Positions 40,714-64,000 of a stretch of 64,000 bases of DNA are shown here, piece after piece. The stretch is from assembly GCA_964035545.1 (NCBI GenBank), contig OZ037769.1:13794633-13858632 (forward strand), written 5' to 3'. Below the pieces are notes generated by a model that ran no database searches, was not told where the DNA came from, and saw only the letters and a list, made by a program, of their open reading frames with translations. A program made the translations under genes and the position numbers. The stretch's first letter is position 1, and every line of letters begins with the position of its first letter. This stretch comes from Bugula neritina. Its lineage: Eukaryota > Animalia > Bryozoa.

Positions 40714-43700
40714 TCAATAGCCTTTGCTCCAGTCTATGAGATAGTTTAGAGGTCTATCATTAGCATAGTTGTGTAGGTTCTCCGCAATTACTTCAGCCAC
40801 CTATACAAAACATAAGAAACTCTGAGGCTATGCTTCTAGACCTCTGTGACCAGTAGCACTAAATAATTATATTGTGCTGAAAATAGAACTAAACACTAGC
40901 AAATAATACTCTAAACTGCACACAGTATAACAGTTTCAAGTTGAAATATAACCGTCTAAAATACAGCAGGCGTAATGTAAGCTGTGTGTACCTGATGGGG
41001 CATAGTGACTGCAGCCACATGCGGAGTTACAGTAACCTGGGGGTGTTTCCATAGTAACGAGTCAACAGGAAGTGGTTCTGTGGAAAATACATCTAAGATG
41101 GCTGCCCTTATCCACTTCTCTCTGACAATATATAGTGACTGTTATATATGTATATAATACGCATATTATAATATAAGCAAGCTAGCCTTAATGTAGAAAG
41201 TTGTGAGGTGATAACGGGGAGCAAACTGAGTATTATTACAAATAGCATTACAGCAGCCAATAAGAAAGAAGTTATGAAGAATATTTAAAAAAATGAACAA
41301 GAAGCTGTTCAATGTTTCTCAGAGTCTTAATCTAGTTCTAATTGATATTTAAATAAAACCTAGACTGGTGAAATGGTGAATATAACTTTTTGTAAGACAG
41401 AGAGAAGACAATTTCAAGTGTAGAATAGCTTTATCATGACATCTTCTAATAAGAAAGGTACAGTGGTCTTTGTATAAGAAGTGTTCTCTTTGAGCTCCAG
41501 CTGTAGACTGATTCTACACTGGCGAGCTCACCCTTTTATAGTCTAGAAATCGGGCACTCGACTTCTAGCATATTTCATCCGATTTCGGGCTGAATCAGGC
41601 ACCCCGAATTTCGGAGTTACACAAGTGAACAAAGAAAGATAACAAATAAACTACGCCAGAAGTTTAGTTATACTAACAACGCAAATAAAATAGTTAATGC
41701 ATTCTAGAACTTTCCAGAATATAACATGATGATAACTTTCAAAATCTACTACAATATACCATATCACAATTGATGAGCTGCAAACAAAAACAAACAATGC
41801 TATATTTACCTACAGCACTAAATTCTAAAGTTCTTACATGAAGACTAAAATGTGAGACACAACACATAGCCTGAGAGAATAGTGCCTACCTCAGGGCTTG
41901 GAGTATAGAATCCTCAGTACATATGTCACCTCGGCCAACATTGATGAATACAGAACGTTTAGGAGAACAGACCTTCAATCTCTCATTATCCAGTAGACCT
42001 CGAGTTAGCTGTGTACTCGGCAGAATGTTGCAGACGTAATGGCAGTTTGCCAGAAGTTCATCAATTCCATCAGCTGCCCTGTAATATATTATTCATTACT
42101 ATGCAGTATATCATCAGTTACTGTGTAATATATCATCAATTGTTCTGTAATATACTATGTAATATGTAATATAAGTTTTCAACTATTTCACTGTACACTA
42201 CACAAGATCTAGACGTCCACCTGTATTCATCCACATAAGCACATTTGTTCTCATCAGATGGAACTGTAGTAACCAGAGTCCATATCTTCATTCCAAAAGC
42301 TTTGCATGCTTCAGCAACTGCAACACAGACATTTCTTCAACACAACAGGATGTTACATCATCATAAATCAATGTGAAAACTCGTCAACTAGTTCAGCTGG
42401 TAGCAATCCTTGCAAAGAGCTAGTTCTCAGAGATTACTGTGCTTCATGTACAAGCTGCTTATAGAATCAGGTCCACCATTGTCACTGTCAGAGAGAGTGC
42501 AACTTAAGTCACTATGACAGGCTAGCAACTAAGGTTAGATAGGTTTTAATGTCTACCTTTTCTAGCAATTTCACCAAAACCTAGTATGCCAATAGATAGA
42601 CTGTTTAGAGGTCGGCTTTCATTAAACATAAAATCCTTCAATTCGGAAGACCTGCAATTAAACAAAACTGCCACAATATTGTTGAACTACAAAAATATCA
42701 ATGCTGAAATAATAGTTAACTGTCTAGTCGCTTTCAAAAAATGATAGTCAAAATTCTAAAAAAATTTTTGAATATACTTTAGAAATAAATTGTTTGAGTT
42801 GCTTAAATGATAATACAATGCAACAAGGTAATCAAACTTTCAAGTCTATTAGCTGAGGGAGATAAGTCCATGTTTTAAGTCAAAATCGAACTTGATCCAG
42901 CAAGTACTTGAGAAGTATTACCATGACCATGATCCAGTTCAGACTTTTGGTATCCAAGAAAAAGGGGATAACCAGAAATTATCTTTTATTACAGAAATTT
43001 GTGTATTTCATAAAATAAATTTTTTCAAGTTGTACATATCAACTTCTACCCAAAAGAAAGTTTTTAAAATGTATTAGATGTTTTTGTCTAAGTCAAAATC
43101 TTACGGCTAAACCTAAGACTAATGCATACAAATAAACTAAGGTCTGTAGAGATGTAGTTGAGACTTCATCTTGTAGTAAAATCTCACATCAGGTGCTTGG
43201 TTTAAATGGCTGTGGTGATTGAGCAAAATGGGCAAAAACAAGCAAAATTTAATATTCAACAAAAACTATAATTGGTATGAACCAGAAAAGAGAACAAATA
43301 TATTTATTTTTAAAGATTACCATGTAGCAAATTGCTGTTCATGATATGCCAGTCTAAAGTTTCGCTCATGAGCCACAATCTGACCAACGACATACTCCGC
43401 CATAGGCTGGCCGAATACTCCGCCAAATTTACAGTATTTGAAGCTCGGAGTTTCTCCTCCAGCAGGGATCAGTTTCATTATACTAAATCGAAAAATTATA
43501 AAGGAAAACACACTATAAAAAACTCATTTGCGTTTAGAGTCACTATTCCTGTGAGAATCTCTGATGGAAAGGGTATTTTTAAATCAGGCTAAGGACTTAT
43601 TCACACGTGACACAGGAGCAACTATGACTGGAGGCTCTTCCTAACATCACCAATGGCCTTTACTGGAGATCAAACCACTAACCTGGTGCTTACTAAGTCA

Positions 43701-44047
43701 GTGGTCTAGCCTCCAGACCGCAGCTGCTCCCCTTATGCAATATTATATACATGATTAAATTTTGCAAGAGTGATAGAGCTGTGACACACATTACACAATA
43801 TTTACCTATCTATTCCGGCCCATGTTCCATGCACCAACTTTAACTTGGGCCTACCATACAGCCAATGGCGTGCAAAATGGGGCTCTGATACAATCACCTC
43901 CGCTTCATCAAGGAGTTTTTCATCTTTCTCGGTAATATTATATGGTTCGACAGAGGTTATTTTACTAACAACAGTCGAGCAAGATTGGTGTATGACATCA
44001 GCGACTTTAGGAATTTCTGATAGAACGCAGACTACAGGCTTCCTCAT
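40714..44047 (-). CDS. D-isomer-specific 2-hydroxyacid dehydrogenase (GhrA-like), copy B, 7 exons
   Basis: Exons at ~44047-43806, 43483-43321, 42652-42557, 42318-42221, 42078-41890, 41122-40992 and 40800-40714. Motifs [26 protein letters not shown] and VTPHVA. Confidence 0.88.
41391..41753 (-). mobile_element. Solo LTR (Gypsy-type) in an intron, related to the solo LTR at 52426-52906; left boundary uncertain
   Basis: TGT...ACTACA ends. It shares GAGCTCCAG..GTAGACTGA.TCTACACTGG, a minus-strand TATAAAAG and CCGAATTTCGG motifs with 52426-52906. No clean TSD was found. Confidence 0.6.
43523..43730 (-). mobile_element. tRNA-derived SINE copy
   Basis: Reverse complement reads GGAGCAGCTGCGGTCTGGAGGCTAGA...GGCCATTGGTGATGTTAGGAAGAGCCTCCAGTCATAGTTGCTCCTGTG...AAGTCCTTAGCC. 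Confidence 0.85.
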
Positions 44048-45169: not shown

Positions 45170-45468
45170 TGTAGTGGAGCACGCGGTATGTGCCTCCACG
45201 TGCTCCCTAGCCAATCAATTATGTATCAGGTGATACCTCCAGAGATGCGTGTACAGAGGGAATTGCATTACTAGTCAATAGAGTAGATAGCGTGCTAACG
45301 TATAGACGAGATGTAATTTTATAATAACGATACTGGATGTACCTCTTTTCTTGCTATATAGTAGTAAATAAAGACATTCTAACTTTTAACAAACCCCCCA
45401 TTACTTCGGATAATTGGAACCATAATAACAGACTAGAAAACCCACGCATAGTAATTGTGCAAATTACA
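45170..45468 (+). repeat. 5' LTR of element 1
   Basis: TGTAGT...ATTACA with AATAAA at ~45368. About 95% identical by eye to 52406-52425 plus 52911-53103. Confidence 0.9.
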
Positions 45469-45472
45469 ACAG

Positions 45473-45490
45473 TGGTGGCAGCGGTGGGAT
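45473..45490 (+). promoter_or_regulatory. Primer-binding site complementary to the tRNA-Leu 3' end
   Basis: TGGTGGCAGCGGTGGGAT directly after the LTR. Confidence 0.85.
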
Positions 45491-45510
45491 ACTAGTTACT
45501 GTTAGAGACA

Positions 45511-48500
45511 ATGAAAGGACATTACGATATCATGGCAGAAAGTACAGCTTTGAGTGAGGAAGGTGAGCGAGATACTATCATAACCCCTTTCCAGGCTGGA
45601 GAGGAGGCGTATAAGTATAGATTAAAAGCTCCCGTCTTCACGGGCCTAGAAGATGTTGAACAATTTATTCAAGAATTCAACGAAGTTACAGCCATTACTG
45701 AATGGCCGCCAAGAATAGCTTTGATATAACTACGGATGGTGCTGACGGAGAGAGCCAAGCCGTACGGACTGAGATCCAGTGTAAACGGGATCTTTGCTGC
45801 GCTGCGGGCCTGTTTTGGCATATCTGTCATAGACGCCAGGGTCCGTTTACAAAGGCTGCTCCGTAGAACACACACACCACTCAAGGACCACGCTACACTA
45901 GTGAAGAGACTGGCACGGATCGCGTACAGCGACTTGCCAGAAACACATCGACAACACTATACCTTCGAGGCCTTTGTACAGTCCCTCAATAATCTGGGCC
46001 TCCATCATCAGCTTCAAGTAAGAGGAGTGACCACGATAGAGGCTGCGCTACAAAAAGGTGAAGCCTATTTATTGGCCGAACAACTCCATCGGGCAACGGA
46101 GAACTCCCCGCGTCCCCACCCAGTCCGGGTAGCTGTCGCTACTACCAACCCCTCCCTGGGAACGGAGGTAGACCGCTTCATGACCATGCTAGAACAGTTG
46201 GTGGCAATCATAACGCGTGTCAACCCCACAGGATCCAGGACACTGAAGATAGAGGTCCCAAGACCAGCTGCCTTATGTTAGAGATGCGGCACCAGGGGAC
46301 ATCTCCGCTCGAGTTGTCCAAAACCTAAGAAGCAGTTAAACCCTCACGGCCCGCGGATGCCTCCAAAACCCCGCGGCCCAAGAAAGAAGGAGCCACGGGG
46401 TGGATACCACCAGGCGTTTGTACGGACCCCGCAGTATGCCCCCCACCAGTGGCAGACACCCTGTCGGACCAGTCAACCTGACCGGCGGCGGGAACCTTTC
46501 TCACTGCCTCTCACTAACCGCTTCAGCCAGCTACCAGAAACGGAGCTGGCTGGCGAGGTTCCTTCGGACAGCGGAGGGGAACAGCTCACCCCTCCGCAAG
46601 GAAACTCTCACCTCCACCGGCCCCGCAAACCGCGGAACAAACGGGCACCACCCCGTTCGGCCGAGACCGAACACGCTGGGGGAGTACGGGTACAACCTCA
46701 TGGAGATAGCTACTTCTTGCCAGGGAAGGTGGCCGGCAAAGCTGTCACATTCCTGCTAGACTCCGGGTGTACTACTAATCTCTTCAGCCGTCGGGTCTCC
46801 GATACCCTCCCCTCCAGGGAGAGGGGAGCCTTAGCTTCCTATACCGGGGAACCTGGCACCCTTGCAGACGGGTCGCGTATCCCATTCTACGGTATTATAG
46901 AGCTGACTGGACGCATCCGCGACCAGGCTAGAGGAGGATGCCATACTAGGGATGCCGTTCTTGAAGCGACATGGTTACCGCATTGACTTTAGCAAGTCAG
47001 CCATGCTAATGGCCGGCAAGGAGCTCACCTGTGTCGACAAGTTCGGCCATCTCCTAGTGGGAGGCGTGCAGGTAGTACCGAGCTGTACAATACAAGGCCG
47101 CTCCCGGGCTACCATTCACTGTAGGGTGAACAATAGCCAAATCTCGGGATTGGGGGTTGTCGAAGGCGCGCGCACAAGAATACAGCTCGCTAGCAGTCTT
47201 AACCGGCTGACTGATCGAGGAGAGATCTTGGTGCAGTGTGTCAACCCCTTTTCCGAGGCGGTGAAACTACTGTCAGCGTCCATGCTGGGCCGGTTCCATT
47301 CTGTTCAGGAAGAAGATATAGGGCCGTCGCTAGGAGATGCGGCGGAAGGTCCCCGACAGAGCCCGTAATTGAGGCGGGGGACCGTCCCACAGCACGTCCG
47401 GGAGCTGTACCAGGCAGCATGTGACGGCTGCGCGAGCAACGGAGAGCGCCAGGCTATGGCCCGGTTGCTACGCGAGTACAGCGACGTGTTCAGCAGTGGA
47501 GACCATGACGTAGGCCTGACAACGGCCGTCCGTCATGAGATACCGCTAGCTGCAGAGACTGCCCCTATCCGACAACCCACTAGGAGGTTGGGACCAGAAA
47601 AGGAGAAGGAGGTCAGCCAACAAGTCCGGGATCTTTTGGACCGCGGCCTCATAGAGCCAGCACATAGTGCGTGGAGCTCGCCGGTCGTCTTAGTCCCAAA
47701 GAAAGACAGCAGTTGGCGGTTCTGTGTGGATTATCACAAGCTGAATAGCTTACCCCTTACCCCGGATCGACGAATCTCTGGACGCCCTAGCCGGCAGAAA
47801 GTACTTTAGTACACTAGACTTGCTGAGTGGCTATTGGCAGGTCTCCCTCAGTCTCGACGCCCAAGAGAAGGCGGCATTTATCACAAGGGACGGCCTATGG
47901 AAGTGGAAAGTCCCACCCTTTGGGCTGACTTCCGCCCTCGCCACCTTCCAGAGGCTCATGGAACAGGTCCTCAGTGGACTCCACTGGAAGACACTGCTGG
48001 TTTACCTTGATGACGTCAACGTGATCTCCCCAGACTTCCAGACACATATCAGTCGTTTGCGGAAGGTGTTCGAACGACTCAGAGGTGCCGGTCTAAAGCT
48101 CAAACCCTCTATGTGCGCTCTCTTGCAGCCAGAGGTGAAATACCTGGGGCACATCGTCGGCCGTCACGGCGTGGCGACGGATCCCAAAAAGGTATGAGCT
48201 ATAGAAGACTGGGTCACCCCCCAGGATTTGACCAGACTTCGGGCATTCCTCGGGCTGGTGGGGTATTACCGACAATACATACCAGACTTTGCGGGGGTGG
48301 CTCAGCCGTTAAATCGGCTCACCGCAAAGGGGGTGACCTGGCAGTGGACTTCTGTCGAACAGAGGGCGTTCAACTGCTTCAAGGGCCGCCTGCTAGAGGC
48401 TCCCATCTTGGCCTACCCAGACCCCGCTCTGGAGTACATCCTAGACACAGACGCCAGTGACCAGAACGTTGGCGCTGTGCTGTCACAGGTGCAGGAGGGC

Positions 48501-50929
48501 CGAGAAGTAGTAGTAGCCTACTACAGCAAATCTCTCTCACCCACCGAAATAAATTACTGCACTACCCGCAAGGAACTGCTGGCAGTAATCAAGTCGGTGA
48601 AGCACTTCAGACCCTATCTATACGGCAGGAAGTTCCGGCTGCGTACGGACCACGCCTCCTTGATTTGGTTGTGCAAGAGAGCAGAACCGTCTAGCCAGGT
48701 CGCCAGACGGCTCAAGGTCCTGGCTGAGTTCTCTTACCCGATCGAACATCGACCCAGTAAGAAACACGGCAATGCAGATGGACTGAGCCGGCGACCGGAC
48801 GAGGGGTGTAAACAATGCCTCAACATCGAGAGGAGAGACGGAGGTCCCCCACAATCCGAGTTGAGAGCACTGGATCACCCTGGGGTAGAGTATGACTGGG
48901 ACCAGGGTCAACTCCAACAGAAGGCTGATACGCCTCTGGAGGCAATACAGAACCTCCGCGCCAACCCTGCCTTGGCTGATAATGCCAGAGAGCTGCAAAA
49001 ACTCCAGGAGGATCTTCCGGGAGTAGTAGCCAACGTGTACCGGGCCAAGAAGGAGGGGCGACGACCCAGGAAAGAACAACTGCGGCAGGGATGCGCCGAG
49101 TTACGGCTGTACTGCCAACGTTGGGACTCCCCGCGGATCGGGCCAGATAGTCTGCTGACCATGACAGTGGCCGCAAACAACAGACACCCCAAGAGAAAGC
49201 GGGTAGTCTGCCCAGCTACCATCTGCCGAGAGTTAGTATGGGACACCCACAAACAGGCTCACGCAGGGGTCCAAAGGGTGCTCACAAAATTACAGCTCCG
49301 GTGGTATTGGCCCAACATGGAGCGTGACGTACGACTCAGAGTAAAACAGTGTGAAATCTGCCAGGCCAGCAAGCATGGCCATCTCCCTGGTAAAGCGGGA
49401 CGGCATAGGCTATATGCTGGGAGGTTATGGCAAGTGGTAGCTGTTGACCTGGTCGGACCCATGCCCCTAAACCCCAGAGGAAACAGCTATGTCTTAGTAT
49501 TAACCGACCACTTTACCAGGTGGGCCGACGCTCTGGCTATTCCGGATGCGTCTGCCCCAACGGTGGCCAGGGTGCTAGACCAAAATGTATTCTGCTACTT
49601 TGGATTACCCGAGCAGATACATTCAGACCAGGAAGCTCAATTTCACTCTCAACTTTTGAGCGACCTCTGCCGCCTCTGGGGAGTAAACTAAAGCAGGACC
49701 ACTCCTTACCACCCTCAAGGTAACGGAGTGGTAGAACGCAACAACCGATAGTTGGGCGATGCAATCCGCAGTCTTCTCCTCGGCCGAGGTCAGGAGAAAT
49801 GGGATATGGTGTTACCGCAAATCATGCGGGCCTACCGCAATACACCACGCACCAGTACGGGCGAGACCCCTAACCTCCTGATGTTTGGTCGGGAGACGCG
49901 AGTGCCCGATCACCTCACCTACCACATTCCTGAACAGGACTATCCCATCCATGAGTATGCCAGTGAATTGGTAGAGAAAATGAAGGTCGCACACGAAATA
50001 CTGCGAAAAAAGCAGTGACAGGTGTGACAAGAAGACTCAGGAACCACCCCTTTACCAAGCTGGGGACTGGGTGTGGATGGTCAACTACCGTAGGCGTTGA
50101 GGGCAGGCGGCTAAACTCCAGCCTAAGTTTGTGGGACCCTAGGTAGTAGTTGAGGCGATGCCCAATCATATGTACAAGTTGGAGCGCTCAAGCCAGATAT
50201 CTATCCAGAATGAGGCTCGCTTGAAACCGTATTGGGCTAGCCCAGGGGCAGCAGGAGAAGCCCCCCCATTGTTGGAGCCCAGGAGGCAAACAGCAACGTG
50301 CGGGCGGCGACGGCATGGACCAAAATACGAAGTCGTGTGCCGCGGGCGGAAAACTTGGTAAGGCAGGAAAGGCCACTTCCATCAACAGAAGTGCGCCCAC
50401 CGCCCCCAACGCCAAGCCTACCGCCAACACTTCCGGAACCAGACGCGGATCCGGAAGTGCAAACCCCCCCCCCGTGGGAGGGGCTCCATCCGGAGATGAT
50501 GAAGAAGAAGGAAATACGACCATCAACGACGGGCCGGAGACACCACTAGTGGAACCTAATAGTCCACCAGTGAGTACACCGCCCCGACCAGCAACCATAC
50601 CATCTTCCCCAGCTAGTATGCCACCTCCCCTGGAACGGGAACAACGTACTAGACAACCCCCAGCATACTTAAAAGACTTCGTATGTGACCGCGTTACAAA
50701 CGGCAATTATGAAAGTCCAGCTGGGTGCCGTACGGAGAGGCTGGCAGCGAAACGTGGGAGTTGTGAACACCACGGAAATACTAACTTTTGCAAGGGCGGA
50801 GTAGTGGGCAAAATTACTACACCCGGGGCAAACAGTTCCGGCTTTGCGCAAGAAACACGCGGTCCGGTCTTTTCCTACGCTGACATCGCCAAGGGCAGAC
50901 GTATTAAATCCACTAACATCCAAGCTTGA
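45511..50929 (+). pseudogene. gag-pol of element 1 (multiple stops and frameshifts)
   Basis: Fragments 45511-46986 (gag, CCHC C*RCGTRGHLRSSC, PR in the same frame), 47369-48197 (RT), 48228-49691 (RT/RH/IN) and 49752-50929 (IN C-terminus with Pro-rich tail). Confidence 0.92.
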
Positions 50930-50938
50930 ACGCTGAGT

Positions 50939-52089
50939 ATGATTTCAAATACCAGGTTCCATGGTAAGCTTGCCTAGACCTAGTATTCCTATCTATGGAA
51001 ACGGGTCTAACATTAGCTAATTCTGATTTAATCGCTCTGATTGAATCACAATTACTGGGGACTGAGTTACACGTGAAAGACGACGAGGACATAACAATGG
51101 CCGACAATCTACTAGATCTGGAGCTTGACACTATGTCCCTCAGTCAGTCTACGCGCCACGACACAGTCCTTCGAGTGCCGTATAAAAATATGCATGACTC
51201 TCAGACTATTAACAGTCGGTTGTCATCAGAATTATGCTGTAAAGATCACACTCGATCTAACAATAGTTCTGCTCTTTCAGATACCACTCGCTCTTCTAAC
51301 CCTAATGATAGGCCGCCATTGGAGATGGCCTGGAACAAAGAGCCTATCCCCGCCACGCTTCCGGAAATACTCCTAACCCAATCCTGCTGGATCACGAAGG
51401 ACACCGAGACACTCATCCAACAAAACAGAGGCGGCGATCAGTGCACCACCTGCCGTCTGTGTCAGTTACATTTTACCACCCCCCGCAGACTCAGAGTCCA
51501 CGTCCCCCAACACTATATTACCACCTTCTGTCCCTGTGGTGAATATAGTCACCACAGGGACTACATCCTCCGCCACCAACGAACAATGGGGTGCCACGCT
51601 GGACATCTTTATGAAGTGGACAAACCCTCTTTTTCTCATTTCCTCGACCTCATCAGGCCATTTATCTCTGACCCGACCCGTTATGAACGGCTGTGCCAAG
51701 AATTCCCTGCCCCCCGTATCATTACACAAGGACCCTGTCCCAAAACCCCGGGGTTTAAGAAACCCCCGACACCTCGCCAGTCACCCCCCTCCCGCACTGT
51801 ACCCTGTCCCAACTCTATACCCCAAGTCGTCTTACAACGAATAGAAGTACCCCAGAGAGGGCGCCTCTCTCCTCCCGTTTCTCCTCGACCCTCCCGTAAG
51901 CGCCGTTGGCTGTCTTCCTCTCCCAATCGCCACTCTTCTCCTGCTAGGAATTTGAAAGAGACGGAGCAACGAATACATGAGTTAGAGAGAGAAGTTCAAC
52001 GGTTGGCACCTAGAATATCTGCCGCCGCTTCCGAGCTCCGGGCTTTCCGTGACTCCGTGGCCCAATTAAAGAGGAATGCCCAAGACTGA
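50939..52089 (+). CDS. Accessory zinc-finger/coiled-coil ORF of element 1 (predicted micro-exon 50939-50963 plus exon 51281-52089; the unspliced ORF 50995-52089 is also open)
   Basis: CRLC-x12-H-x3-H finger, CPCG-x11-H-x5-CH finger, basic RPSRKRR tract and a heptad C-terminus. Homologous to regions of elements 2 and 3. Confidence 0.75.
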
Positions 52090-52405
52090 GTGTCTACTCC
52101 CTCCCTTCGTCCCATTCCACTATCACTTAACTACGCCGCGAGTGGTGCCTCACTTACCGCCTTCTACATATCACTGCCCGGTGCTATAGTAAGGACTCTC
52201 AATACAGACAATCTTTTAGTTAGTACGCAATTATTTTTTTAGTTTTATATAGGCCTTTGGCATAAAAATACCTTGTGATTCTGTTAACGCTGTCTCGTTG
52301 TTTATTTTTGATTGTGTTTTTTTTATATATATATATGTACGCATTTCTTTTTTTAAAATTTTATTAGTCTTATCAGGAAAGTGGGCTTCCTGCTGGGGGG
52401 GGCGA

Positions 52406-53103
52406 TGTGGTGGGGCACGTGGTATTGTGATAAACTTGTGGGTTGAATGTAACTTAGTGCAGAACAAGAGAGGTTGAGGTAGTAGAGTTCAAAAATGTTT
52501 TATTGTAGCAGAATAACTTCGACTTACCCAGGCGAGCTCCAGTAGTAGACTGAATCTACACTGGAACTCGCCTGCTTTTATACACAGAGAACAATAGAGC
52601 ATGTAGACAAGAGATCTTTTGTGGTCCGAAATTCGGCAGCTCCGAAATTCGGCAGAGCCGAAACTCGGCCCACAAATTTCCAGTATCAGTATTATTGCAA
52701 AACGATAAAATAGCAGCACAAAAGAAAATAACTCCGGAATGCGTATTTCAGCAAAATTACATTATGTTGAAAGCTTTAACAATAATCACAATAATTGGGC
52801 ATTAGCAAGCTAGCTTACTACAATTACAGCATTCAAAACGATACGCAACAGTAATCACAATACACGCAGTTATTTCAGAACTAATAGAGGATGAGAATCC
52901 ATTACAGTACGTGCCTCCACGTGCTCCCTAGCCAATCAATTATGTATCAGGTGATACCCCAGCGATGCGGGTACAGAGGGAATTGCATTACTAGTCAGTA
53001 GAGTAGATAGCGTGCTAACTTATAGACGAGATGTAATTTTATAATAACGATACTGGATGTACCTCTTTTCTTGTTATATAATAGTAAATAAAGACATTCT
53101 AAC
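52406..53103 (+). repeat. 3' LTR of element 1, split by a nested solo LTR and truncated at 53103
   Basis: Starts TGTGGT after the PPT, resumes at 52911, and matches the 5' LTR up to ...GACATTCTAAC. Confidence 0.9.
52426..52906 (-). mobile_element. Nested solo LTR of another family (481 bp)
   Basis: TGTGAT...ATTACA with a 4-bp TSD GTAT/GTAC. The minus strand carries TATAAAAG, an Inr-like TCAGTC and AATAAA. Confidence 0.88.
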
Positions 53104-56100
53104 GCTGGAGGTTCTGTGTGGACTACCGCAGACTCAACAGTGTTACCATCCAGGACGCTTACCCTCTCCCACAAATAGACGAGTCTCTGGATGCCCTCCC
53201 TCGCGGGTAGCAAGTACTTCAGTACTCTGGATCTGCTTAGCGGGTACTGGCAAGTACCCCTCAGTCCTGATGCTCAGGACAAAGCAGCATTCATTACTCC
53301 CGAGGGGCTCTGGAAGTGGAAAGTACTGCCGTTTGGACTACGTCTGCCCCGGCAACTTTCCAAAGACTCATGGAGCAGGTCCTCAGTGGATTACACTGGA
53401 AGACCCTCCTAATCTATCTGGATGACGTCATTGTCATCTCCCCAGACTTTACGACTCATGTCAGTCGTCTGCGGGAGGTCTTTGATCGACTCCGGGCTGC
53501 TGGACTGAAGTTGAAACCCTCCAAGTGTGCACTCCTACAGGAAGAAGTCACGTACCTGGGCCATGTGGTTGGCCGTGACGGGGTCGCTACCGATCCGGAG
53601 AAGGTACAGGCTGTGAAGGAGTGGGCCGTCCCCCGGGACCTCTCTGAATTGCGGGCATTCCTGGGCCTGGTAGGGTACTACAGGCAGTACGTACCCGGGT
53701 TTGCAGGGGTGGCTCAGCCTTTGAATCGGCTAACCGCCAAGGGAGTCCGGTGGCAGTGGACACAGGAGGAGCAGCAGGCATTCGACCACCTCAAATAACG
53801 GCTAACGGAGGCGCCGATTCTGGGGTATCCTGATCCAGCCAAGGAATACATCCTGGACACTGACGCCAGCGACCACAGCGTGGGAGCTGTTCTGTCTCAA
53901 GTCCAGGGTGGAAGTGAGGTAGTCGTGGCTTACTACAGCAAGACTCTCGCGGCCGCCGAGAAGAACTACTGCACCACTAGGAAGGAACTCCTAGCAGTAG
54001 TCAAGGCGGTCAAGCACTTTCGGCCATATCTGTATGGGAGAACGTTCCGGTTGCGAACAGACCATGCATCACTGATATGGCTGTGTAAACGTGCAGAGCC
54101 CTCGAGCCAGATGGCTCGTTGGCTAGAGATTCTTGCTGAGTTCTCCTACCGGATAGAGCACCGTGCCGGCAAGAAGCACGGGAACGCTCATGGCATGAGT
54201 CGCCGACCGGTAGAGAACTGCAAGCAATGCCTACACATCGAGAAACGTGATGGGGGACCTGCTTGCCTTGACGTCGAGGCACAGTTGGGGGACGGCAACG
54301 TCTATCGTTGGGAGCACGGCCATCTTCGGCCTGCAACCCACTCAGACGACGTCCAAGCACTTCGTGCTAACCCCACGCTATACCAGAACGTCAAAGAGCT
54401 GTGTCGACTGCAAGAGACACTCCCTGGATCAGTAGCTGACATCTTCCAGGCCAAGAAAGAAGGCAGACGGCCCTCGGAGGGACAGCAACGGCAAGGGGAC
54501 GCAGAGTTCCAGTTCTTCTGCCGCCGCTGGAATTCTCTCCAGATTTGTTCAGACGGTCTCCTGACAATGACACTCGCAGCAGACAACCGGCAACAGGAGA
54601 AGGACCGCGTCGTGTGCCCGCGCGCTCTCCGTCGAGAAATCATCTGGGATACCCACAGACAGGCTCATGCTGGAGTCAGTCGGGTCATCAGATGCCTGCA
54701 GATGCGTTGGTATTGGCCCGGAATGACCAGGGATGTGCGACTGAGAATTCAGCAATGTAAAGTCTGCCAAGCCAGCAAACACGGGCGCCCCACCGAAACC
54801 ACGGGTCGGCGCCGGCTATACGCCGGCCGGCCCTGGCAGGTCGTAGCCGTGGACCTTGTGGGACCAATGCCCACAACGGAGAGGGGGAATTCCTGGATTT
54901 TGGTCTTAACAGACCATTTTACGAGGTGGGCAGACGCCCTGGCTATCCCCGATGCATCGGCACCCACAGTAGCTCGGGTCCTGGATCAACACGTGTTCTG
55001 CTACTTCGGCCTACCCGAGCAGATCCACACTGACAAGGGCGCCCAATTTCAGTCACAACTGTTGAAGGACCTTTGCCAAGTATGGGGGGTGAATCAGAGC
55101 CGGACCACCCCATATCACCCTCAAGGAAACGGAGTGGTAGAAAAAAATAACCGGATGCTGGGTGATGCCCTCCAGAGTCTTTTGTTGGGGAGGAGCCAAG
55201 AAGAGTGGGACATCATGCTACCACAGATAATGCGAGCATATCGAAGTACCCCTCACTCCAGTACAAAAGAGACACCTAATCTGTTGATGTTGGGCCGTGA
55301 AACTAGGGTGCCGGAACACCTTGCTCACCATATTCTGACCCCCGAATTTCCAGTACACAAGTATGTGGGGAAGTTGGTAGAGACCATGAGAAGAGCCCAT
55401 GACGCCTTGAGAGAGAAACAGTGGACGGTGCGGACAGAAGACTCCGAGGAGCCTCCACTATACCAGGAAGGGGACTGGGTGTGGATGGTCAGTTACCGGA
55501 GGCGGCGCGGACAATCGGCTAAATTACAGCCTAAGTTCGTAGGCCCTTACTGCGTGGTAGAGGTTTTACCCAACCATACATACCGTGTGGAGCGCTCAGG
55601 GCAAATATCTGTCCAAAACGAGCAACAGTTGAAACCCTACTACGAAAGCCCAGAGGCTGCAGGGCAGGCACCACCACTGCTGGAACCGGCATGCCAGCCT
55701 ATTTCCCGTGGAAGGAGGAACCAACCCAGAGACTGGGAAATAATTATTCGCGATCCTGGAGAAGTCCGGGACACCTATGACGCCCCGCCACGAAACCTGC
55801 CACCTACTCTACATATCCCTGATTCACCCACCCGGACCAGCCAACCAGAGGCGCCACCACCACCAACACAGACCTCAGAGAGCCTACCCTTGCCACCAAT
55901 ACCTGTTCCAGAAGACATACCCCCTCCGCCGAACGTCCCAAGTCAACCAAACAGCCCTACCAACCCCACTCTGGGGAGAGGAAAGAGAGACAAGAAACCC
56001 CCGAGTTACTTGGCTGACTATCATGTTGGGTGCCTGACTGAACCCCGCTCCTCGAATCATTCACTCCGACCGAATACGAATTCGGACTGTCATCTCGGGC

Positions 56101-57530
56101 CGGACATAAATACACTAACTATTCAAGAAATTCAAGACCAAAATTCGGGGGTAGCCCGACGTCCGGAGTTGTCTAATTTAACTGACCACTTGACCGGTCA
56201 CGTGACCGGCGATCCCACGAGTTTTAAAATTGAAATTCAAAACTCGGCCATTTTCACTTCAACTCTAGACGAAGAAGCACGCTCTCTCGAACTAAAATCA
56301 GAAAACTTAGCAGATATGGAGCCTATTACGACTGAACAAGCTCAAGTCACTACACGATCAGGTATTTCTAGCATACTAAAACCTCCTTTCATGGAGTACA
56401 GTAGCTCGTTCGATTCATTTTCACCCGACCATCAGTGGGAAAATGAGTTGTTCTTTGACAACAAAGGTCAGGGCGATTCAGAAGAGTCCCCAGTCAATGA
56501 CTACCTGCTAGACCAGGAGATTGGACGGGTGTCTCTTCGGCTATCACCTGACCTACCCATTTGTCAGAGAGTACCTTTCAAGGAGATGCCGAATTTCGGC
56601 AATTATAAGGCCAGGTCACCAAAGCCTCTACTTTCTATTGCAGAAGCCATCGAATGTGAGGAGGTCGGGGCGAGTCATACCGACTCCCCGGCCACAGTGA
56701 CTCCTGACCCGGCTACTACCAACCCACCAGAGGCCCCGATGCCGGAGCCCGCACCCACCACCCAGCCAGAGGCAAGTACCTCCCCTCCGGTCGACGGTTC
56801 CCCGTCCGGTGAGGGTTCTCAGATGAAAGATGAGCCCATGTACCAACAGCTGGCTCTTCCCCAGATCTTGACGGAGCGACCCCACTGGACCACGGAGGAG
56901 ACCCGTGCCAAAATAGAACGGGACTGTGGAGAGGCCGGCAACCGCAAGTGTCGCCAATGTAGTAGGAAGTTAACTACTACCAGGCGACTGCGGGTGCATG
57001 TGCCACAACACTACGCCAATGTTTTCTGCCTGTGTGGCGAATTCTCTTTTCAGAGAGATTACGTGCTGAGACACCAGCGCATAGCCCGCTGCCACACGGG
57101 TCAGATATTTGTGGTTGACGAGGCAACATTCCCCGAGTTCCGGGATTTGATCCTCCCCCACATCTGTGACCCCCACAAGCGGGCGACACTCGCCCAGGGG
57201 TTTCCGGCATGCCGCCCAACGCAGGAAACCACGGACGAGGAGGCACCACCAACGTCCCGGCCAGCTGTCACCCGACCCCTCCGGGTTGTGTTGGCTCGGG
57301 TCGACGGAAATGGAGAGACGACCCCGCAGATAGCCGGCCACAAAAGGGGGTGGCGCCAGAACTCCAGAGCCCCAGTTTCCACTCCAGCTCCACCAGAGCA
57401 GGCACGATGTCCCCATGAGGCTGAAGTTCTCCGGCTCCGACGCCAGGTGCGCCGGCTAGATGACGATCTACACACTGTCCGCCGCCGTCTAGACAAACTG
57501 GAAGACTGCAGAAATAGCCGCCGCAATTGA
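53104..57530 (+). pseudogene. pol (RT-RH-IN) of element 2, read in frame into the accessory ZnF/coiled-coil region (micro-exon 56316-56361, exon 56644-57530)
   Basis: ORF 53880..57530 (1216 aa). Only about 2 frameshifts and 1 stop lie upstream of it. Confidence 0.88.
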
Positions 57531-57705
57531 GGTGTAGCTAACGACAATTACTCAGCTCAAACTATATCCTCTTGTTCCCGGTTGTATATTTTTTTATGAT
57601 CTGTAGCTAGTTTCATCCACCCCAAGATATTGTTTTTTTCTATATCTACATAATAGTTTTTTTTATATATATATCGGAAAGGGGTACTTTTCGATAAGGG
57701 GTGAG

Positions 57706-58121
57706 TGTAATAGATTTGCTCAATTATATTATATTCTTCTCCTGCATTGTGATAACTAGAGTTATGTTCCCTCGCCACTTGTTTTTCTTTTAATAATAAT
57801 TATATGTGAGCCGAAACTCGTGCGAAGTCGGAGGCCGAAGACACGAGGTCGGAGGGGGGCCTGTCCGAGATCGGACAGGATTCCCTCCGATGTCGGTCGG
57901 CGGAACTCCGAGCTTCGTACGAGTTTCGGACCCCCATTAGTGGCGGGAATTCCACCATATATAAGTGCGAGTTTTTCGAATCTAAAGTCAGTACTGCACA
58001 GGAGCTGCCCGATGAAGGAAGCAATAAATACTATTAATTACAGTTTAACAAGACTCTTTATTTCATCATAATAATTGGCATGCAGACTACTTAGTCTCTT
58101 CTCATAACCCGCAAAACTACA
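57706..58121 (+). repeat. 3' LTR of element 2
   Basis: TGTAAT...ACTACA, with TATATAAG at ~57958, TCAGT at ~57988 and AATAAA at 58023. Confidence 0.85.
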
Positions 58122-60051
58122 ACAATATATATTTTGTATGTCAAGTTAAATTTAAAATTAATCATAAAGATAATTATCAAGATGAATTTAAAATTAAATG
58201 ATTGCTGATGATGATGTTATGATGATAATGTCCAGCATGATAAAAGTAAATATTCAATAATCATAATGAGAATGACAATCATGAGCCTAAGAGTAATCAT
58301 AACTATTTTTTTTAATTTTCATTTTGATTTGGTTGTAGTTTGAGTGAGACTAAGAGTAAGAGTAATTATACAACTAAATGGTTTAACTAACAGTTAGTGT
58401 TACACTTACTTGTCACTAAATCAGTTGCTGTAGATCAAGATGAAGATGTAACACCAACGAACACTGACAGTCACTGTGACTGTATCAAGTGAGACTGTTG
58501 GTCTAAACTTAGTCTTGCCTTTTAACTTTTAAGTAATGCAGTATTACTACATTCATTACTATTACTATTAGTATTAGTATTACTTAGAGTTTAATGCTTT
58601 TTATTTAGTTGAGTTCACCAACAGTAATGCTGTCATTATCATTATATTCATATAACTTCTGAAATTGGCAATAAACTTAAATTTTAATCAATGTATTGAC
58701 TTCTCATCGCGACACCCCCTAGTTATTGACCCCGATATTGTGCTTCATGATTTTCATTTTTTAATCTTTACTTAGCAGGTACATGCATTTCAATTAGCTG
58801 AGTTTGTGCAAAATTCAAAGTCTAATTAATGATGATAATTGCAAAATTAGATTTTTTCACATAGCAAAATACAGATCAAAAATTCTTGTAACACCCATTT
58901 TAGTAAAAAGAACACCCCTTGATAACTAAAGTGGAAGGGGTTTGGTCGCGAGGAAACGATTGTTTTATTTGAGGCCTTTAAAATTCTGTTTGGCAGGAAA
59001 GTAGCTTCCAATAATTTTCATACAATTTTTTTTTTAATTCAAATGATTTAAAAATTTCAAATGTAGAAGTATACAATAAAACCTAATTAAATTCGAAACA
59101 AAAACAAGTATTGCAATGCACTGAGAAAGTTGTCTTCTCTATTGCCAGTGAAAAACTGTACTCTAAACTTTTGAAACCAGTAAAATTAACTAGTGATGCA
59201 ACAGTGCATCTGACAAATTTTGCACAGGCTTTAGTATATTTGCTGCACCATGCAGTTTTTGATCTGTAGCTACATGTCTTCAATTACAGATAATAGAGGT
59301 TGTTATATTATTATGTGTCTTTTGTTTATCACTAATTACGGACTAGCGAGATGCTACGTTATAATGTCATGTGCATTTGTTTATTAAAATACATATTGGG
59401 TCAAGGACGAACGAGAGACTACGAGATGAAAGATGTCAGCCTACAGTAGATAAACACGCCGATAGACTTTGTGATAAAATAATTATAAATCAGTACTATA
59501 CTTTTGGTCCTTGTATTTCCCCTGGCCGGCCAGACCCCACTTTAAGTTTATTGTTCTTTCGATACTTCAATGTCATGCCTACATACTTCGAGTAACTCTC
59601 AGGTAATTATATACTCACTATACTTAATGTTTCAGAGGTCAGAGCAGCTGAGCTGTTTCAAAATTTCAATTAGCATAACAATTTAATATGTTTTTGAAAA
59701 AATATATTTAAACTTGTTTATTCTTTATAAGAAACATGAGGCATACATTTCAAATATGTTAAAATTCAATGCAATATATTTTCTATGCAACTTAAACTTG
59801 ATTAGCAAAACACCATTATAAAATAGAACACAGGCTGATTTTGTCTGGTGCATATAAATTCAGAAGCGTGTGTGCTCTATATATATTATAATGTGCATGT
59901 GTATTGTTGAATTCTCTACAAATAAAATTCAATAATTAGTACACTTTAAACCAAACATTACTCTATAGATCCTATTTTGTGTATGCAAGTGTGAGTTGAT
60001 AATAATGGCTTTACATGTATTTAAAATTATGCTACAACTTGGTAATAATTT

Positions 60052-60571
60052 TGTAGTTTTGTGCACTACTAGATGGGGTGTTATTGTGTGCTGGTAATTA
60101 CTGCATATCCACTGGGAGGTTATGTGAAGAACCGAACAAGTTGATCATGGAACGAGAGAACTGTATTGAATTAATTACGCACAATAAAATCAGTATACAA
60201 TAAAAGAGAAAAATATAACAATAGTCAGAGTAATTACATATTATGGTTAACTTAGTAGCTACTAGTGTTATGATTTTCAGAATTAGGGTCGATATGCAAT
60301 CCAGAGAGTCTAATTACTTGCTAGAGAACTTCACCAGGATAAGTCGAGTGAACGAGTATATATTTTAAACACAATAACACATTACAAAAACGATACAAAT
60401 ATATTTAATAATTCACACATCTAGACTATTCAACACTCTAACTTCGACTAACTAACAGCGGGAAAACTTCTACTGCTAATAACTATCAAAGCCGCTAATT
60501 GGCTGTCATTGTTCCGGGTCAATTACGCGACCCTGCGTATCGTGCTGCTGGTAGCTCCACAAGCCACCACA
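60052..60571 (-). repeat. 3' LTR of element 3
   Basis: Minus strand TGTGGT...ACTACA directly after a PPT whose context (GGGCTTTCTGCTGG) matches that of element 1. Confidence 0.8.
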
Positions 60572-60863
60572 CCGCCCCCACCAGCAGAAAGCCCTCTTTC
60601 TGATATAAAAAATATATTTCGTCATTACCCACGTACATCAGTAGACCAAAGAAAAGACATAATACATATAAAGATATACAATAACAGGCAGAGTCATTAT
60701 AACAGCAGGTTACGTACAATTGGCCAGCTATAGAGAAGGAATACCGGCTAGTTGTAGTATTGGACAAGGAATCGAGCTGTTGAGCAGTCAAGCATTTACA
60801 CGATAGTCTTGGGTCTCCCAAGAGGACGAGGCTTGTGGATCATTCCGGGCAACAGAACCAGAG

Positions 60864-61934
60864 TCAGTGTTGGGCACGCCGATGTTTGGCCTGGCATGTA
60901 CGTAACTTCCTTTTAATCCGGCCCACCGAGCCTTTTAGCTGAAAGAGTCCCGTTGTGGTATTAAGCAGATCCGGTGCTAACTAGGTAAACTCAGCTTGCA
61001 GTCGGAGGAGGCGTTCCTCCACTGTGGCCAAGCGAGTAGGGTCTGGGGACGGTGTCCGTCTGCGACGAAGAGGGGGACTTGGAGACCGGGTCCGTCTTTT
61101 CGTCGGGGTAGGGGAGACCTCTCTTTCTTCGGGATAGGAAAACTCTTCGGGGGTGTACACAGTCTGAGGGCGGTCGGATACCAATGGAGATTGTTGCCTG
61201 GCGTAGTCTAGTACGCGCTGGAAACCTGAGGTCAGAACGGCCAACAACATCGCCTTCTTCACTAGAGGTCGTATCAGAGTTAAGAATTCTGGATAGAGTT
61301 TGGCATCCACCACGTAATTTTCTCCGGAAAAACAGCCCGTCGCCCGATGTCTGGTAACGGGGTAGGGTAGACGTCATTATATCCACAGGGGCAGAACGTG
61401 AGCAATAGATGGGCGTTGACATGCAGCTTCAAGGAGCGGTGAGAGGCACACTCCTCGTCACAAATCTGGCACCGCGTCCTTCCTTTGGGTCCCCAGGCTG
61501 TTTCTATCTGTTCCTCTGTTTCCGGCGACACCCACCGCCAACGGCGGCGCAGCGGCTCGAGCCGGTCACCATTGGTATACTCCTCAGGATGCGGAGCGGG
61601 AAGTGCTCTATCCCGTACCCTGGTTGTAACGGGTCGAGTGTAACCTGAAAGAGTTTCAACAGTGTTAGTATAATACACTGCAGTGTTGTCAGCTTTGGAC
61701 AGCCTGGCAACTTCTCGTTCAGTTACCTCGTAGAGATGTATGGTAGTGAATAGTCAGATAGAACACGTATTGCAATGAGATTATACAATCTCTAAGTCAA
61801 CTGAGTTCTTACCACGGTAGTTCACTAGCCTATCTCCAGCTCATTTGACTCAGTGAGTCGGAGCTGAGTGATGCAATCTAGTTTCCATATCAAGATATAG
61901 TTAACTCACCCCACGATCTGTTGTCGTAAGACAT
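60864..61934 (-). pseudogene. Accessory ZnF/coiled-coil gene of element 3 (micro-exon 61934-61910, exon 61644-60864; one frameshift and one stop)
   Basis: CQIC-x12-H-x3-H, FCPCG, YVVDAKLYPEFLTLIRP, KRRTRSPSPPLRRRR, and heptads LATVEERLLRLQAEF. Confidence 0.75.
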
Positions 61935-61958: not shown

Positions 61959-64000
61959 CTACTGATTAGGAACACGTCTACTCTTGACTGCATCAGCGTA
62001 TGAAAAGATCAAGCAACGTGGTTGGGGTGCGTGAATTAGACTTTGTGCACTCGGCGGATGAATTTTGTTTCTACTTCCGCCGATACAAAAGTTGATATTT
62101 CCGTGGTGTTGACAACTCCCACATTTGCTCGATACTTTTCCCGTACGGTTTTCCCCTAGACTTTCATACGCGCCGCTTTTAATGCAGTCACATACGAAGT
62201 CCTTCAAATATGCGGGGGTTGCCTCGTACGTTGTCCCCGCTCCAGGGGAGGTGACGCACTCGTCGGTGTAATAGTAGGGGCCTCTGGTGGCGTCTCTACT
62301 TCACCGTTAGTGGTCACTTCTTCTTGTTCTCCGGATGGAGCCCCTCCCTCCGTGGGGGTTTGCACTTCCGGAACCGGCTCGGTTTCTGGAAGTGGTGGAA
62401 TCAGACTTGGCGGTGGCGGACACGCTTCTGTTGGTAAAAGCGGTCGCTCTTCTCTCACCAATTCTTTCTCCCGCGGTATGACCACTTCATATTCAGGTCC
62501 CTGCCGCCGTCGCCCGCGCGTTGTTGTCTGCCTCCTGGGCTCCAACAACGGGGGGGCTTCTCCCACTGCGTCGGGGCTAGCCCAATACGGCTTCAAGCGA
62601 GACTCATTCTGGATAGACACCTGTCCTGAGCGCTCAATCTTGTACGTATGGTTGGCCATAGCCTCGACGACCACGTAGGGTCCCACGAACTTAGGCTGTA
62701 ACTTAGCCGCCTGTCCGCGACGCCTACGGTAATTGACCATCCACACCTTATCTCCCGTTTGGTAGAGGGGTGGTTCCTCGGATTCTTCGTGTCGCACCTT
62801 CCACTGCTGTTCGCGCAGTATATCGTGTGCGGCCTTCATCCGTTCCACTAGTTCACTGGCATACTCGTGAATCGAGTTGTTTAGCTCTGGAACGTGGTGG
62901 TTGAGATGGTCAGGAACCCGGGTCTCTCTCCCGAGCATCAAGAGGTTTGGGGTCTCACCAGTACTGGTGTGTGGGGTGCTACGGTATGCACGCATGACTT
63001 GCGGCAATACCGTATCCCATTCCTCTTGGCTGCGTCCGAGGAGAAGACTCCGGAGCGCATCACCTAGCATTCGGTTGTTGCGCTCCACCATCCCGTTACC
63101 TTGGGGGTGGTAAGGGGTGGTCCTGCTCTGATTCACTCCCCAGAGGCGGCAAAGGTCGCTCATCAGTTGAGACTGGAACTGAGCGCCTTGATCAGAGTGT
63201 ATCTGTTCGGGGAGCCCGAAATAACAGAATACATGTTGGTCTAGCGTCCTGGCCACTGTTGGGGCTGACGCATCTGGGATAGCCAGAGCATCTGCCCACC
63301 TAGTAAAGTGGTCGGTCAGTACTAAGATCCAACTATTGCCTCTGGGGGTCAGGGGCATCGGTCCGACCAGGTCAACAGCTACCACTTGCCACGGCCTGCC
63401 AGCATATAGCCTCCGCCGTCCCGCTTCACCAGGGAGACAGCCATGCTTGCTGGCCTGGCAGATTTTGCACTGCTTTGCTCTGAGCCGGACATCCCGCCCC
63501 ATTTTGGGGCCAATACCACGGGAGTTGCAATTTGGAGATCACTCTCTTGACCCCTGCATGGGCCTGTTTGTGAGTGTCCCAGATTAACTCACGGCGTATG
63601 GCACTGGGGCAGACCACCCTCTTCCTCTCCGGGTGTCTGCCGTTGGCAGCTAGAGAAATGGTCAATAGACCATCCTGCCCGATCCTCAGCGAGTCCCAAC
63701 GCTGGCAGAGTAGCCGGAACTCGGCGCATCCCTGCCGTATGCGTTCCTCGCTGGGTCGTCGCCCGTCCGTTTTGGCCCGATATATGTCTGCCACTACCCC
63801 AGGCAACTCCTCTTGGAGCTTCTTTAGCTCCTGGACATAATCGGCCCGTACAGGATTGGCGCGGAGATTTTGTACAAACTCCGGGGACTCGTCAACTTCC
63901 TGCCTGAGATGACCCTGGTCCCAGTCAAACGGTGCTCCGTGGTGAGCCAATGTCTCCAACTCCCATCGCGGGGGACCTCCGTCCCTCCTCTCGATGTTGA
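61959..64000 (-). pseudogene. Integrase and C-terminal pol tail of element 3
   Basis: HKQAH...CKIC, VAVDLVGP, IHSDQG, GMVER and KFVGPY. Frameshifts occur at ~63500 and ~62205. Confidence 0.92.

Follow-up and report, generated by a model that had tools for sequence, protein, structure and literature searches.

LTR retrotransposons are generally held to rely on host transcription factors, whereas DNA-binding activators of their own are characteristic of complex retroviruses, e.g., foamy viruses. Three Ty3/Gypsy elements of Bugula neritina raise the question of what a gene that lies between integrase and PPT, and that is not env, does for its element. The elements are located in one 64-kb stretch of DNA (the window). 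For their common gene, the original prediction had proposed a nuclear, dimeric nucleic-acid-binding accessory protein, possibly acting as trans-activator, RNA-export factor, or anti-silencing factor.

Elements in the window

LTRs, a primer-binding site, PPTs, and the order gag-PR-RT-RNase H-IN are present, in agreement with an assignment to Ty3/Gypsy. None of the three copies is intact: element 1 is decayed, element 2 is without its 5' half, and element 3 leaves the window.

45170..45471 (+): element 1 5' LTR (end 45468 or 45471), 96% repeat of 52907-53103, TG..CA ends
45473..45490 (+): element 1 primer-binding site, from sequence; presumably tRNA-Leu type
45511..50929 (+): element 1 gag-pol (CCHC, PR, RT, RNase H, IN), decayed by stops and frameshifts; final frame stops at 50929
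45532..45568 (+): element 1 gag 5' end, strong phase-1 splice donor after 45562
52375..52405 (+): element 1 PPT region, 88% match to that of element 3
52406..53103 (+): element 1 3' LTR, interrupted by an insertion and truncated at 53103, at the start of element 2 RT
52426..52906 (-): solo-LTR-like insertion of 481 bp; its 4-bp duplication has one mismatch
53104..57530 (+): element 2 pol remnant
53799-57530 (+): element 2 single open frame, RNase H to integrase to accessory module
57706..58121 (+): element 2 3' LTR, many CCGA..TCGG palindromes
60052..60571 (-): element 3 3' LTR
61959..64000 (-): element 3 pol 3' part (integrase, frameshifted), continuing past the window edge

The elements had been called diverged, but they are relatives rather than distant lineages, with a pol DNA identity of 77-81% between elements 1 and 3 and of 69-74% between either of these and element 2. 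Their LTRs were indeed unalignable, as no alignment exceeded shuffled controls; likeness among the LTRs is confined to the termini, and the PPT regions are also alike. Separately, a block of CCGA/TCGG motifs is common to the 481-bp insertion and the element 2 LTR.

The accessory gene and its protein

A homologous gene was found between integrase and PPT in all three elements, at the predicted places. The degenerate pattern C-x2-C-x12-H-x3-H-x4-F-C-x-C-G has exactly three matches in 64 kb (51451, 56949, and 61471 on the minus strand) and none in 100 shuffles, and a six-frame search with the core profile recovered only elements 1, 2, and 3. The positions originally taken as starts (51281, 56644, and 61644) turned out to be the first bases past predicted splice acceptors and not gene starts.

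50995..52089 (+): element 1 long ORF, 364 aa, with acidic N-terminus, zinc-finger domain, basic tract, and C-terminal helix
51355..51714 (+): element 1 folded double zinc-finger domain, from AlphaFold and conservation
51940..52083 (+): element 1 C-terminal helix, 48 residues, heptad pattern
56644..57530 (+): element 2 exon 2, with zinc-finger domain (56856-57215), basic tract, and heptad helix
60864..61644 (-): element 3 exon 2, frameshift near 61365 and stop near 60982; homologue P0149

The placement was seen directly for the three window elements and is supported indirectly by homologues: P0075, P0081, and P0141 run in from the integrase tail, P0073 from RNase H, and P0225 and P0249 from protease, while P0088 and P0103 run out into PPT-like sequence.

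The view that the product is not an envelope protein was confirmed. The best 19-aa hydropathy values are 0.96, 0.56, and 1.51 for elements 1, 2, and 3, and neither a signal peptide nor a transmembrane segment was found; glycosylation motifs number 0-2. A class I, II, or III fusogen fold is absent, the core being a zinc-finger domain and the remainder disordered or a single helix.

The domain comprises ~90 aa, a C2H2 finger and a C-x-C/H/C-or-H finger, and precedes the basic tract and the long C-terminal helix. Five metal ligands are unchanged in 91/91 aligned relatives. Finger 1 has the canonical C-x2-C-x12-H-x3-H spacing and a beta-beta-alpha fold and scores below the Pfam cut-off; its helix is basic, with R at +3 in 64/91 and R/K at +2 in 76/91 relatives. 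Finger 2 (C-x-C-x12-H-x(n)-C/H) follows after five residues without a TGEKP-type linker array and has R at +1 in 71/91 and D at +2 in 68/91 relatives. A resemblance to the C2HC finger of the plant INDETERMINATE domain was considered, but PDB and fold searches returned no such match.

AlphaFold modeled the element 1 domain with a pLDDT of 95.8 and a pTM of 0.87. In the full-length model, the N-terminus is disordered apart from two short helices; the core (121-240) is folded and is followed by the basic/Pro tract, again disordered, and by a helix of 48 residues, the predicted coiled coil. Core residues 29-79 overlay tandem C2H2 fingers that are mostly DNA-bound (Kaiso, SALL4, ZBTB20, and CTCF), with an rmsd of 2.3-2.7 Å over 50-57 residues and a best Z-score of 3.6, a low value that reflects finger geometry only. 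Extra strands and helices wrap the finger pair into one domain. Compared to the tandem C2H2 factors (SALL4, ZBTB/Kaiso, CTCF), the protein shares the canonical finger 1 and the predicted DNA-bound arrangement of the pair, but differs in finger 2 and the linker and has no whole-domain match. C2H2 fingers bind RNA and protein as well as DNA.

Consistent with the original prediction, no Pfam family scored above cut-off for the module and no Foldseek match reached E≤0.001; ESM Atlas clusters were unnamed or generic C2H2 only. Likewise as predicted, the core is under selection, with a pN/pS of 0.42 (95% 0.33-0.54) that is not near 1, at saturated synonymous sites. Values for the module (0.42-0.76) exceed those for integrase (0.13-0.17). 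The accessory gene, its position, its conservation, and the purifying selection on its core are established. With core selection, no transmembrane segment, and a predicted finger fold, the description as a selected, nuclear-type nucleic-acid-binding accessory protein other than env is supported.

Relatives and host genes

In clusters at 50% identity, the domain search gave 362 matches with E≤0.001, which include generic finger proteins. Four relative clusters carry a species name, and each of the four is a bryozoan gene. The same domain is present in uncharacterized annotated genes of Watersipora subatra (XP_067940963/4, XP_067944745) and Bugula neritina (KAF6040922/3), three of which share another N-terminal domain. 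XP_067940963/4 has two domain copies, its C-terminal end is coiled-coil-like, and the tree places it as sister of the clade of the window (92/92). Some of these annotated genes may be element-derived models. Because the domains of the bryozoan genes do not form one clade, their sequences suggest repeated exchange between elements and hosts. The original prediction had named capture of a host gene as a counter-reading, and this applies in part: since annotated bryozoan genes carry the same domain, the module may have been captured from a host.

Scans of metagenome and viral contigs yielded no relative; the single contig match (L001) lies in a glycosyltransferase operon of bacterial type and arose by chance. 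A swap of modules between elements 1 and 3 was also discarded, as the domain tree groups these two just as pol does, with element 3 on a long branch. Fourfold-site differences amount to 10/16 in the core vs 33/98 in pol (p=0.049, with a misframed pol segment of 11 sites omitted), a weak hint. The literature covered, which excluded subscription journals, Repbase, and Dfam, gave no description of the gene.

Predicted intron and activation domain

All three copies have a predicted spliceosomal intron in the same location, in frame and in phase 1.

50939..50963 (+): element 1 predicted mini-exon (ATG, 25 nt, phase 1), donor rank 1 of 85; 25-nt layout as in element 3
50964..51280 (+): element 1 predicted intron, 317 nt, which includes a branch site plus pyrimidine tract; ORF opens at ATG 50995
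56316..56361 (+): element 2 predicted first exon (ATG, 46 nt, phase 1), donor rank 5 of 79
56362..56643 (+): element 2 predicted intron, 282 nt, open in frame; acceptor rank 1 of 112
61645..61909 (-): element 3 predicted intron, 265 nt, closed in three frames (5, 5, and 9 stops)
61910..61934 (-): element 3 predicted mini-exon (ATG, 25 nt, phase 1), donor rank 1 of 100

Sites were ranked with a splice matrix derived from general consensus frequencies; the acceptors of elements 1 and 3 ranked 3/92 and 11/95. The gag donor after 45562 ranked 1 of 62 GT sites in 45473-47000, and its sequence makes the gag 5' end a possible alternative first exon for the accessory mRNA. Among homologues, the element 2 junction encodes Gly in 5/5 mapped cases. 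The residue before the junction is variable (L, S, V, I) but YAG/G-compatible in 53/54, and a Met follows within 20 residues past the junction in 52/54. Among the variants listed, those at the donor bring relatives closer to the consensus than element 1 is, and YAG is retained in the single acceptor variant listed. The introns of elements 1 and 2 share 13 identical residues; nine of these are encoded by different codons, which shows that the intron is also under selection at the protein level. In two runs presumed to be RNA (contigs only, with a depth that tracks the DNA run), no joint at the predicted intron was present, which speaks neither for nor against splicing. A further acceptor, upstream of the mini-exon, looked plausible for elements 2 and 3; element 1 has GAG at this site, with no variant among the relatives listed, and the option was therefore dropped.

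In elements 1 and 2, the intron is itself open to translation and encodes a predicted activation domain.

51007..51144 (+): element 1 predicted acidic activation domain (aa 5-50), inside the predicted intron
56394-56525 (+): element 2 predicted activation domain (aa 27-70), inside the predicted intron

The 39-aa rule applied was trained on human proteins (eq. 1 of PMC10550315), and that paper gives its revised rule a positive predictive value of 0.2-0.7 (PMC10550315). In elements 1 and 2 it fires only within the predicted intron, and it is positive in 25/36 long element-1-like homologues. In 24/37 non-redundant relatives, strongly acidic tiles occur upstream of the domain, vs downstream in 5/37 (p=1e-5); under the strict activation rule the counts are 7/37 vs 1/37 (p=0.056). 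In element 1, the LTR and the sequence ahead of the gene have 22 7-mers in common where chance gives 9.4; elements 2 and 3 show no such excess, and no target motif emerged.

Proposed function

Of the roles originally offered, trans-activator is best supported, by the predicted activation domain, the DNA-bound-type finger geometry, and the predicted splice switch; the other two fared less well and are discussed below. We give an even chance to the proposal that the gene encodes a self-encoded sequence-specific transcription factor, whose predicted intron would toggle it between an activator and a form without the activation domain. An unspliced subgenomic RNA with an internal start near the end of pol would yield a long form, in which activation domain, fingers, basic tract, and coiled coil are combined. 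This form would bind the LTR or internal promoter of its own element and raise transcription. If the local donor or the one at the gag 5' end were spliced, the product would be a short form that keeps binding but does not activate, and therefore would damp the element. The element 3 lineage appears to have the short form only.

By analogy, this arrangement would resemble tas/bet of foamy viruses, in which unspliced RNA encodes a DNA-binding activator of the element's promoters and spliced RNA a dampening product (PMC13220597, PMC517496). In both cases the accessory gene lies immediately ahead of the 3' LTR. However, Tas follows env in a retrovirus, whereas the window elements are without env; here, a zinc-finger pair is the predicted DNA-binding part and would be retained in the spliced form, and the internal promoter is putative. 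No Tas homology was detected in Pfam, PDB, or viral fold searches.

The pol fusion is left unexplained by the transcription-factor model. In element 2 the module is continuous in frame with pol, with 110 open codons between integrase tail and gene, and P0075 (58% identical to element 2) and P0081 (37%) likewise read through from the integrase tail. These cases would fit an integration tether, in which the module steers integrase toward selected DNA or chromatin. It would do so as an extension of integrase in the element 2 subfamily, comparable to the chromodomain of chromoviruses, and in trans elsewhere. The clustering of three elements and a solo LTR within 19 kb and the known chromodomains at integrase C-termini (PMC2774666) point the same way. 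Yet the Pfam scan of the 1243-aa element 2 frame revealed no chromodomain, elements 1 and 3 terminate pol ahead of the gene, and, of 42 proteins aligning at the start of element 1, 37 begin with their own Met at its ATG. Fused forms of 1008-2875 aa were absent among 6079 candidates, a count of little weight. A tether would need neither the intron nor the acidic domain. We consider it unlikely.

Alternatively, the protein might bind CpG-rich motifs of the element and recruit chromatin opening, like the motif-binding VANC proteins of Mutator transposons. Faster evolution of the module than of integrase, the long branch of the element 3 lineage, the unalignable LTRs, and a CCGA/TCGG density of 28 per kb in the element 2 LTR vs 1.6 in host flank are in line with such a function. 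However, Pfam and fold searches found no enzyme or chromatin-reader domain. VANC proteins are described as anti-silencing factors (PMC13547354); the reading overlaps with that of a transcription factor, differing only in the step after binding, and is rather improbable.

An RNA export or processing factor of the Rev/CERV kind would bind the unspliced genomic RNA, which must leave the nucleus with its intron. That RNA has strong predicted donors and an acceptor, and the phase-1 donor in the gag start recalls CERV of Cer1 (Gypsy, C. elegans), made from a spliced mRNA with a start common with Gag and needed for export (PMC10309623). CERV is likewise a nuclear Gypsy accessory protein with a Cys-rich loop, leucine zipper, and NLS, but its domains are H, M, and G, together with a possible C4 finger (PMC10309623), whereas the window protein has a C2H2-type pair and an acidic N-terminus and lies after integrase. 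The modeled fingers are arranged like DNA-bound pairs, a conserved leucine-rich export signal was not apparent, and the acidic domain would be unaccounted for; we regard an export role as improbable, slightly more so than anti-silencing. Lastly, a functionless passenger, i.e., a captured host zinc-finger gene, is suggested by the Bugula neritina and Watersipora subatra genes but is very improbable and already largely refuted by purifying selection at saturated synonymous sites, by start codon and splice signals conserved across dozens of copies, and by retention in two subfamilies with LTRs no longer alignable.

Family-specific ORF3s other than env, coiled-coil types included, also follow pol in LTR elements of bdelloid rotifers (PMC5408684). 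Those encode GDSL esterases, DEDDy exonucleases, and transmembrane or coiled-coil proteins, and the words 'zinc', 'finger', and 'intron' are absent from the text of that paper (PMC5408684).

For the transcription-factor model, a wider reading is less likely than not: an LTR lineage without env may have evolved a complex-retrovirus-style circuit independently, with the activation domain in a retained intron and splicing flipping activator to repressor, and its finger domain may have been traded repeatedly with bryozoan hosts. If true, a Gypsy lineage that encodes its activator and turns it off by splicing would represent convergence on the complex-retrovirus design, and the way in which an element controls the number of its copies could be tested directly. 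The domain defines a new zinc-finger family, shared with annotated genes of two bryozoan genera, and offers a tractable case of transcription-factor parts moving between transposons and hosts.

Element cluster and its setting

LTR retrotransposons form a 19-kb cluster in this AT-rich animal DNA, starting at position 45170 of the window. The three related elements were assigned to Ty3/Gypsy because their domains follow the order gag (CCHC), protease, RT, RNase H, integrase. Pol identity was 77-81% between elements 1 and 3 and 69-74% between element 2 and either of them, and comparison of the three sets of LTRs yielded no alignment above shuffled sequences.

Features of the window
9237-9689: RING-like exon (Pfam below cut-off or none)
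26131-26532: WD40-like exon (by eye)
29803-30144: SVIP-like exon (Pfam below cut-off or none)
45170-53103: element 1, full length, decayed
52426-52906: 481-bp solo LTR, inserted within the 3' LTR of element 1 and splitting it
53104-58121: element 2, beginning with RT and abutting the 3' LTR of element 1, which is cut at 53103
60052 to window end, minus strand: element 3

The junction at 53103/53104, where the 3' LTR of element 1 meets the RT of element 2, may be a deletion, a recombination or an assembly join. The solo LTR and the element 2 LTR (57706-58121) both contain CCGA..TCGG palindromes in repeated form, to which a dimeric protein might bind. The integrases of elements 1 (50660-50929) and 3 (61959-62220) carry a conserved 90-residue tail, containing Cys and His residues, past the usual C-terminal motif. 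Outside the cluster, a PHOSPHO-type phosphatase gene (PF06888) is tandemly duplicated (802-2042 and 7043-8162, 91-96% identical), and host-gene exons with Pfam matches below cut-off or none are scattered over 9234-30147. A dispersed repeat of ~150-250 bp, possibly a SINE or MITE, occurs in at least five copies in both orientations (16987-26064 and 43518-43728).

Accessory gene

Each of the three elements has a single copy of the double-finger pattern, always in the integrase-PPT interval; the window contains no other, and shuffled sequence gave none. As originally predicted, the module is not an envelope protein, since it lacks a TM segment. The element 1 ORF encodes 364 aa from the ATG at 50995, a start matched by an own Met in 37 of the 42 proteins aligning there. 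Database relatives numbered 74 for this protein and 24 for the element 2 version. Searching 1.84 billion representatives with a profile gave 362 matches at E<=0.001, of which 158 reached E<=1e-10; two that were scanned among the 150 matches listed were generic multi-finger proteins. A species name was attached to four of the 30 relative clusters looked up, in each case Bugula neritina or Watersipora subatra.

The claimed conservation of metal ligands held across 91 aligned members, with five ligands invariant and two further His kept in 90 and 88; the W, T and V-D positions were retained in 80-85, and the final ligand of finger 2 was Cys or His at variable spacing. Selection on the module was likewise borne out: pN/pS of the core was 0.42 between elements 1 and 2, with synonymous sites saturated, and 0.65-0.76 against element 3 (integrase, 0.13-0.17). 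The accessory ORF of element 1 (50995-52089) is open for 1.1 kb, and the gag-pol of this element (45511-50929) is interrupted by numerous stops and frameshifts; the RNase H-integrase part contains at least five of the stops. The open frame may reflect chance or a copy retained by the host.

A Pfam scan of the module returned no family above cut-off. AlphaFold modeled the core as a single compact domain (pLDDT 95.8, pTM 0.87), for which Foldseek gave no match at E<=0.001 in the PDB and viral libraries and VIA-align nothing reaching Z>=5. The best VIA-align rows were mostly DNA-bound tandem C2H2 pairs, superposing on residues 29-79 at 2.3-2.7 A. In the full-length element 1 model, disorder at 20-116 and 250-314 is accompanied by short helices (7-20, 35-40) and a single helix at 316-363.

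Predicted intron

Splice signals predict an intron in each element. The ATG is followed by a GT donor exactly 25 nt on in elements 1 and 3 and 46 nt on in element 2, and an acceptor with pyrimidine tract lies 265-317 nt further in all three. In all three the predicted intron has phase 1, and splicing would keep the frame into the fingers; a CTAAC branch site occurs in elements 1 and 3. Scored with a matrix built from general consensus frequencies, the donors of elements 1, 2 and 3 ranked 1/85, 5/79 and 1/100 among all regional GT sites, and the acceptors 3/92, 1/112 and 11/95 among all regional AG sites. Another strong phase-1 donor lies ten codons inside gag. All stops of element 3 upstream of 61644 fall within its predicted intron.

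Among element 1 homologues, 54 of 74 cover the acceptor. The signals are kept: the preceding residue varies yet is YAG|G-compatible in 53 of these, and a Met follows shortly in 52. In the element 2 family, the mapped donors fall on Gly (5/5) and the acceptor fits in 8 of 11 mapped, with Met two to four codons later; family members P0084, P0088 and P0091 did not fit the acceptor or mapped poorly. Among the DNA relatives listed, departures go toward the donor consensus.

The intron of elements 1 and 2 is predicted to code for an activation domain. It is open in both; of 30 residues that align, 13 are the same, and 9 of these use different codons. The published activation-domain rule (PMC10550315) marks aa 5-50 (element 1) and aa 27-70 (element 2) and nowhere else in either protein. 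Strongly acidic tiles occurred upstream of the domain in 24 and downstream in 5 of 37 non-redundant relatives whose flanks span 80 residues or more; the strict rule was positive in 7 versus 1. Stops close the element 3 intron in all frames, and the element 3 lineage sits on a long branch.

Relation to host genes

Annotated bryozoan genes also contain the finger domain. The window clade has as its sister a Watersipora gene containing two domain copies (support 92/92), three other bryozoan genes group elsewhere, and constraining the five host domains together was rejected (p-AU 0.009). The tree comprises 40 of 107 non-redundant rows and 133 columns, with many long branches and unsettled bootstrap. 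Element-host exchange likely occurred more than once, since a protease-fused member also sits on the other side of the tree; its direction is unrooted, and most rows have no known context.

P0113/P0247 and P0128, database relatives, have two tandem domain copies and finish in a coiled-coil-like segment. Among them is a two-isoform RefSeq gene of Watersipora subatra, a candidate domestication. In the annotated bryozoan genes P0201, P0256 and P0259, the finger domain is fused to an unnamed N-terminal domain of ~60 aa that all three have; two of these genes are adjacent in Bugula neritina. P0225/P0249 run in a single open frame from aspartic protease to finger domain and lack RT, RNase H and integrase; they may represent a non-autonomous element from a distant subfamily.

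Discussion

The accessory gene is real. Non-env ORF3s are already known in Gypsy elements of rotifers (PMC5408684), nematodes (CERV; PMC10309623) and plants and fungi (PMC2774666), and the bryozoan elements described in the part examined of PMC13524379 carry env. The literature searched held no prior description of a Gypsy-encoded C2H2-type factor with activation domain.

Two points speak against the transcription-activator reading given below. Genomic RNA carrying the predicted intron would suit a CERV-like RNA exporter (PMC10309623), and a tethering role would fit element 2 and two homologues, where the gene continues the integrase frame over 110 open codons.

The long form has the predicted layout of a transcription activator, comprising acidic domain, DNA-binding fingers, basic tract and coiled coil, and the predicted spliced form differs only by loss of the acidic domain. 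We infer a self-regulating circuit in which the long form would activate the element and the short form would compete with it, presumably as a damper. In foamy viruses, as described in PMC13220597, unspliced tas activates and spliced bet damps; the elements of Bugula neritina may follow a similar logic.
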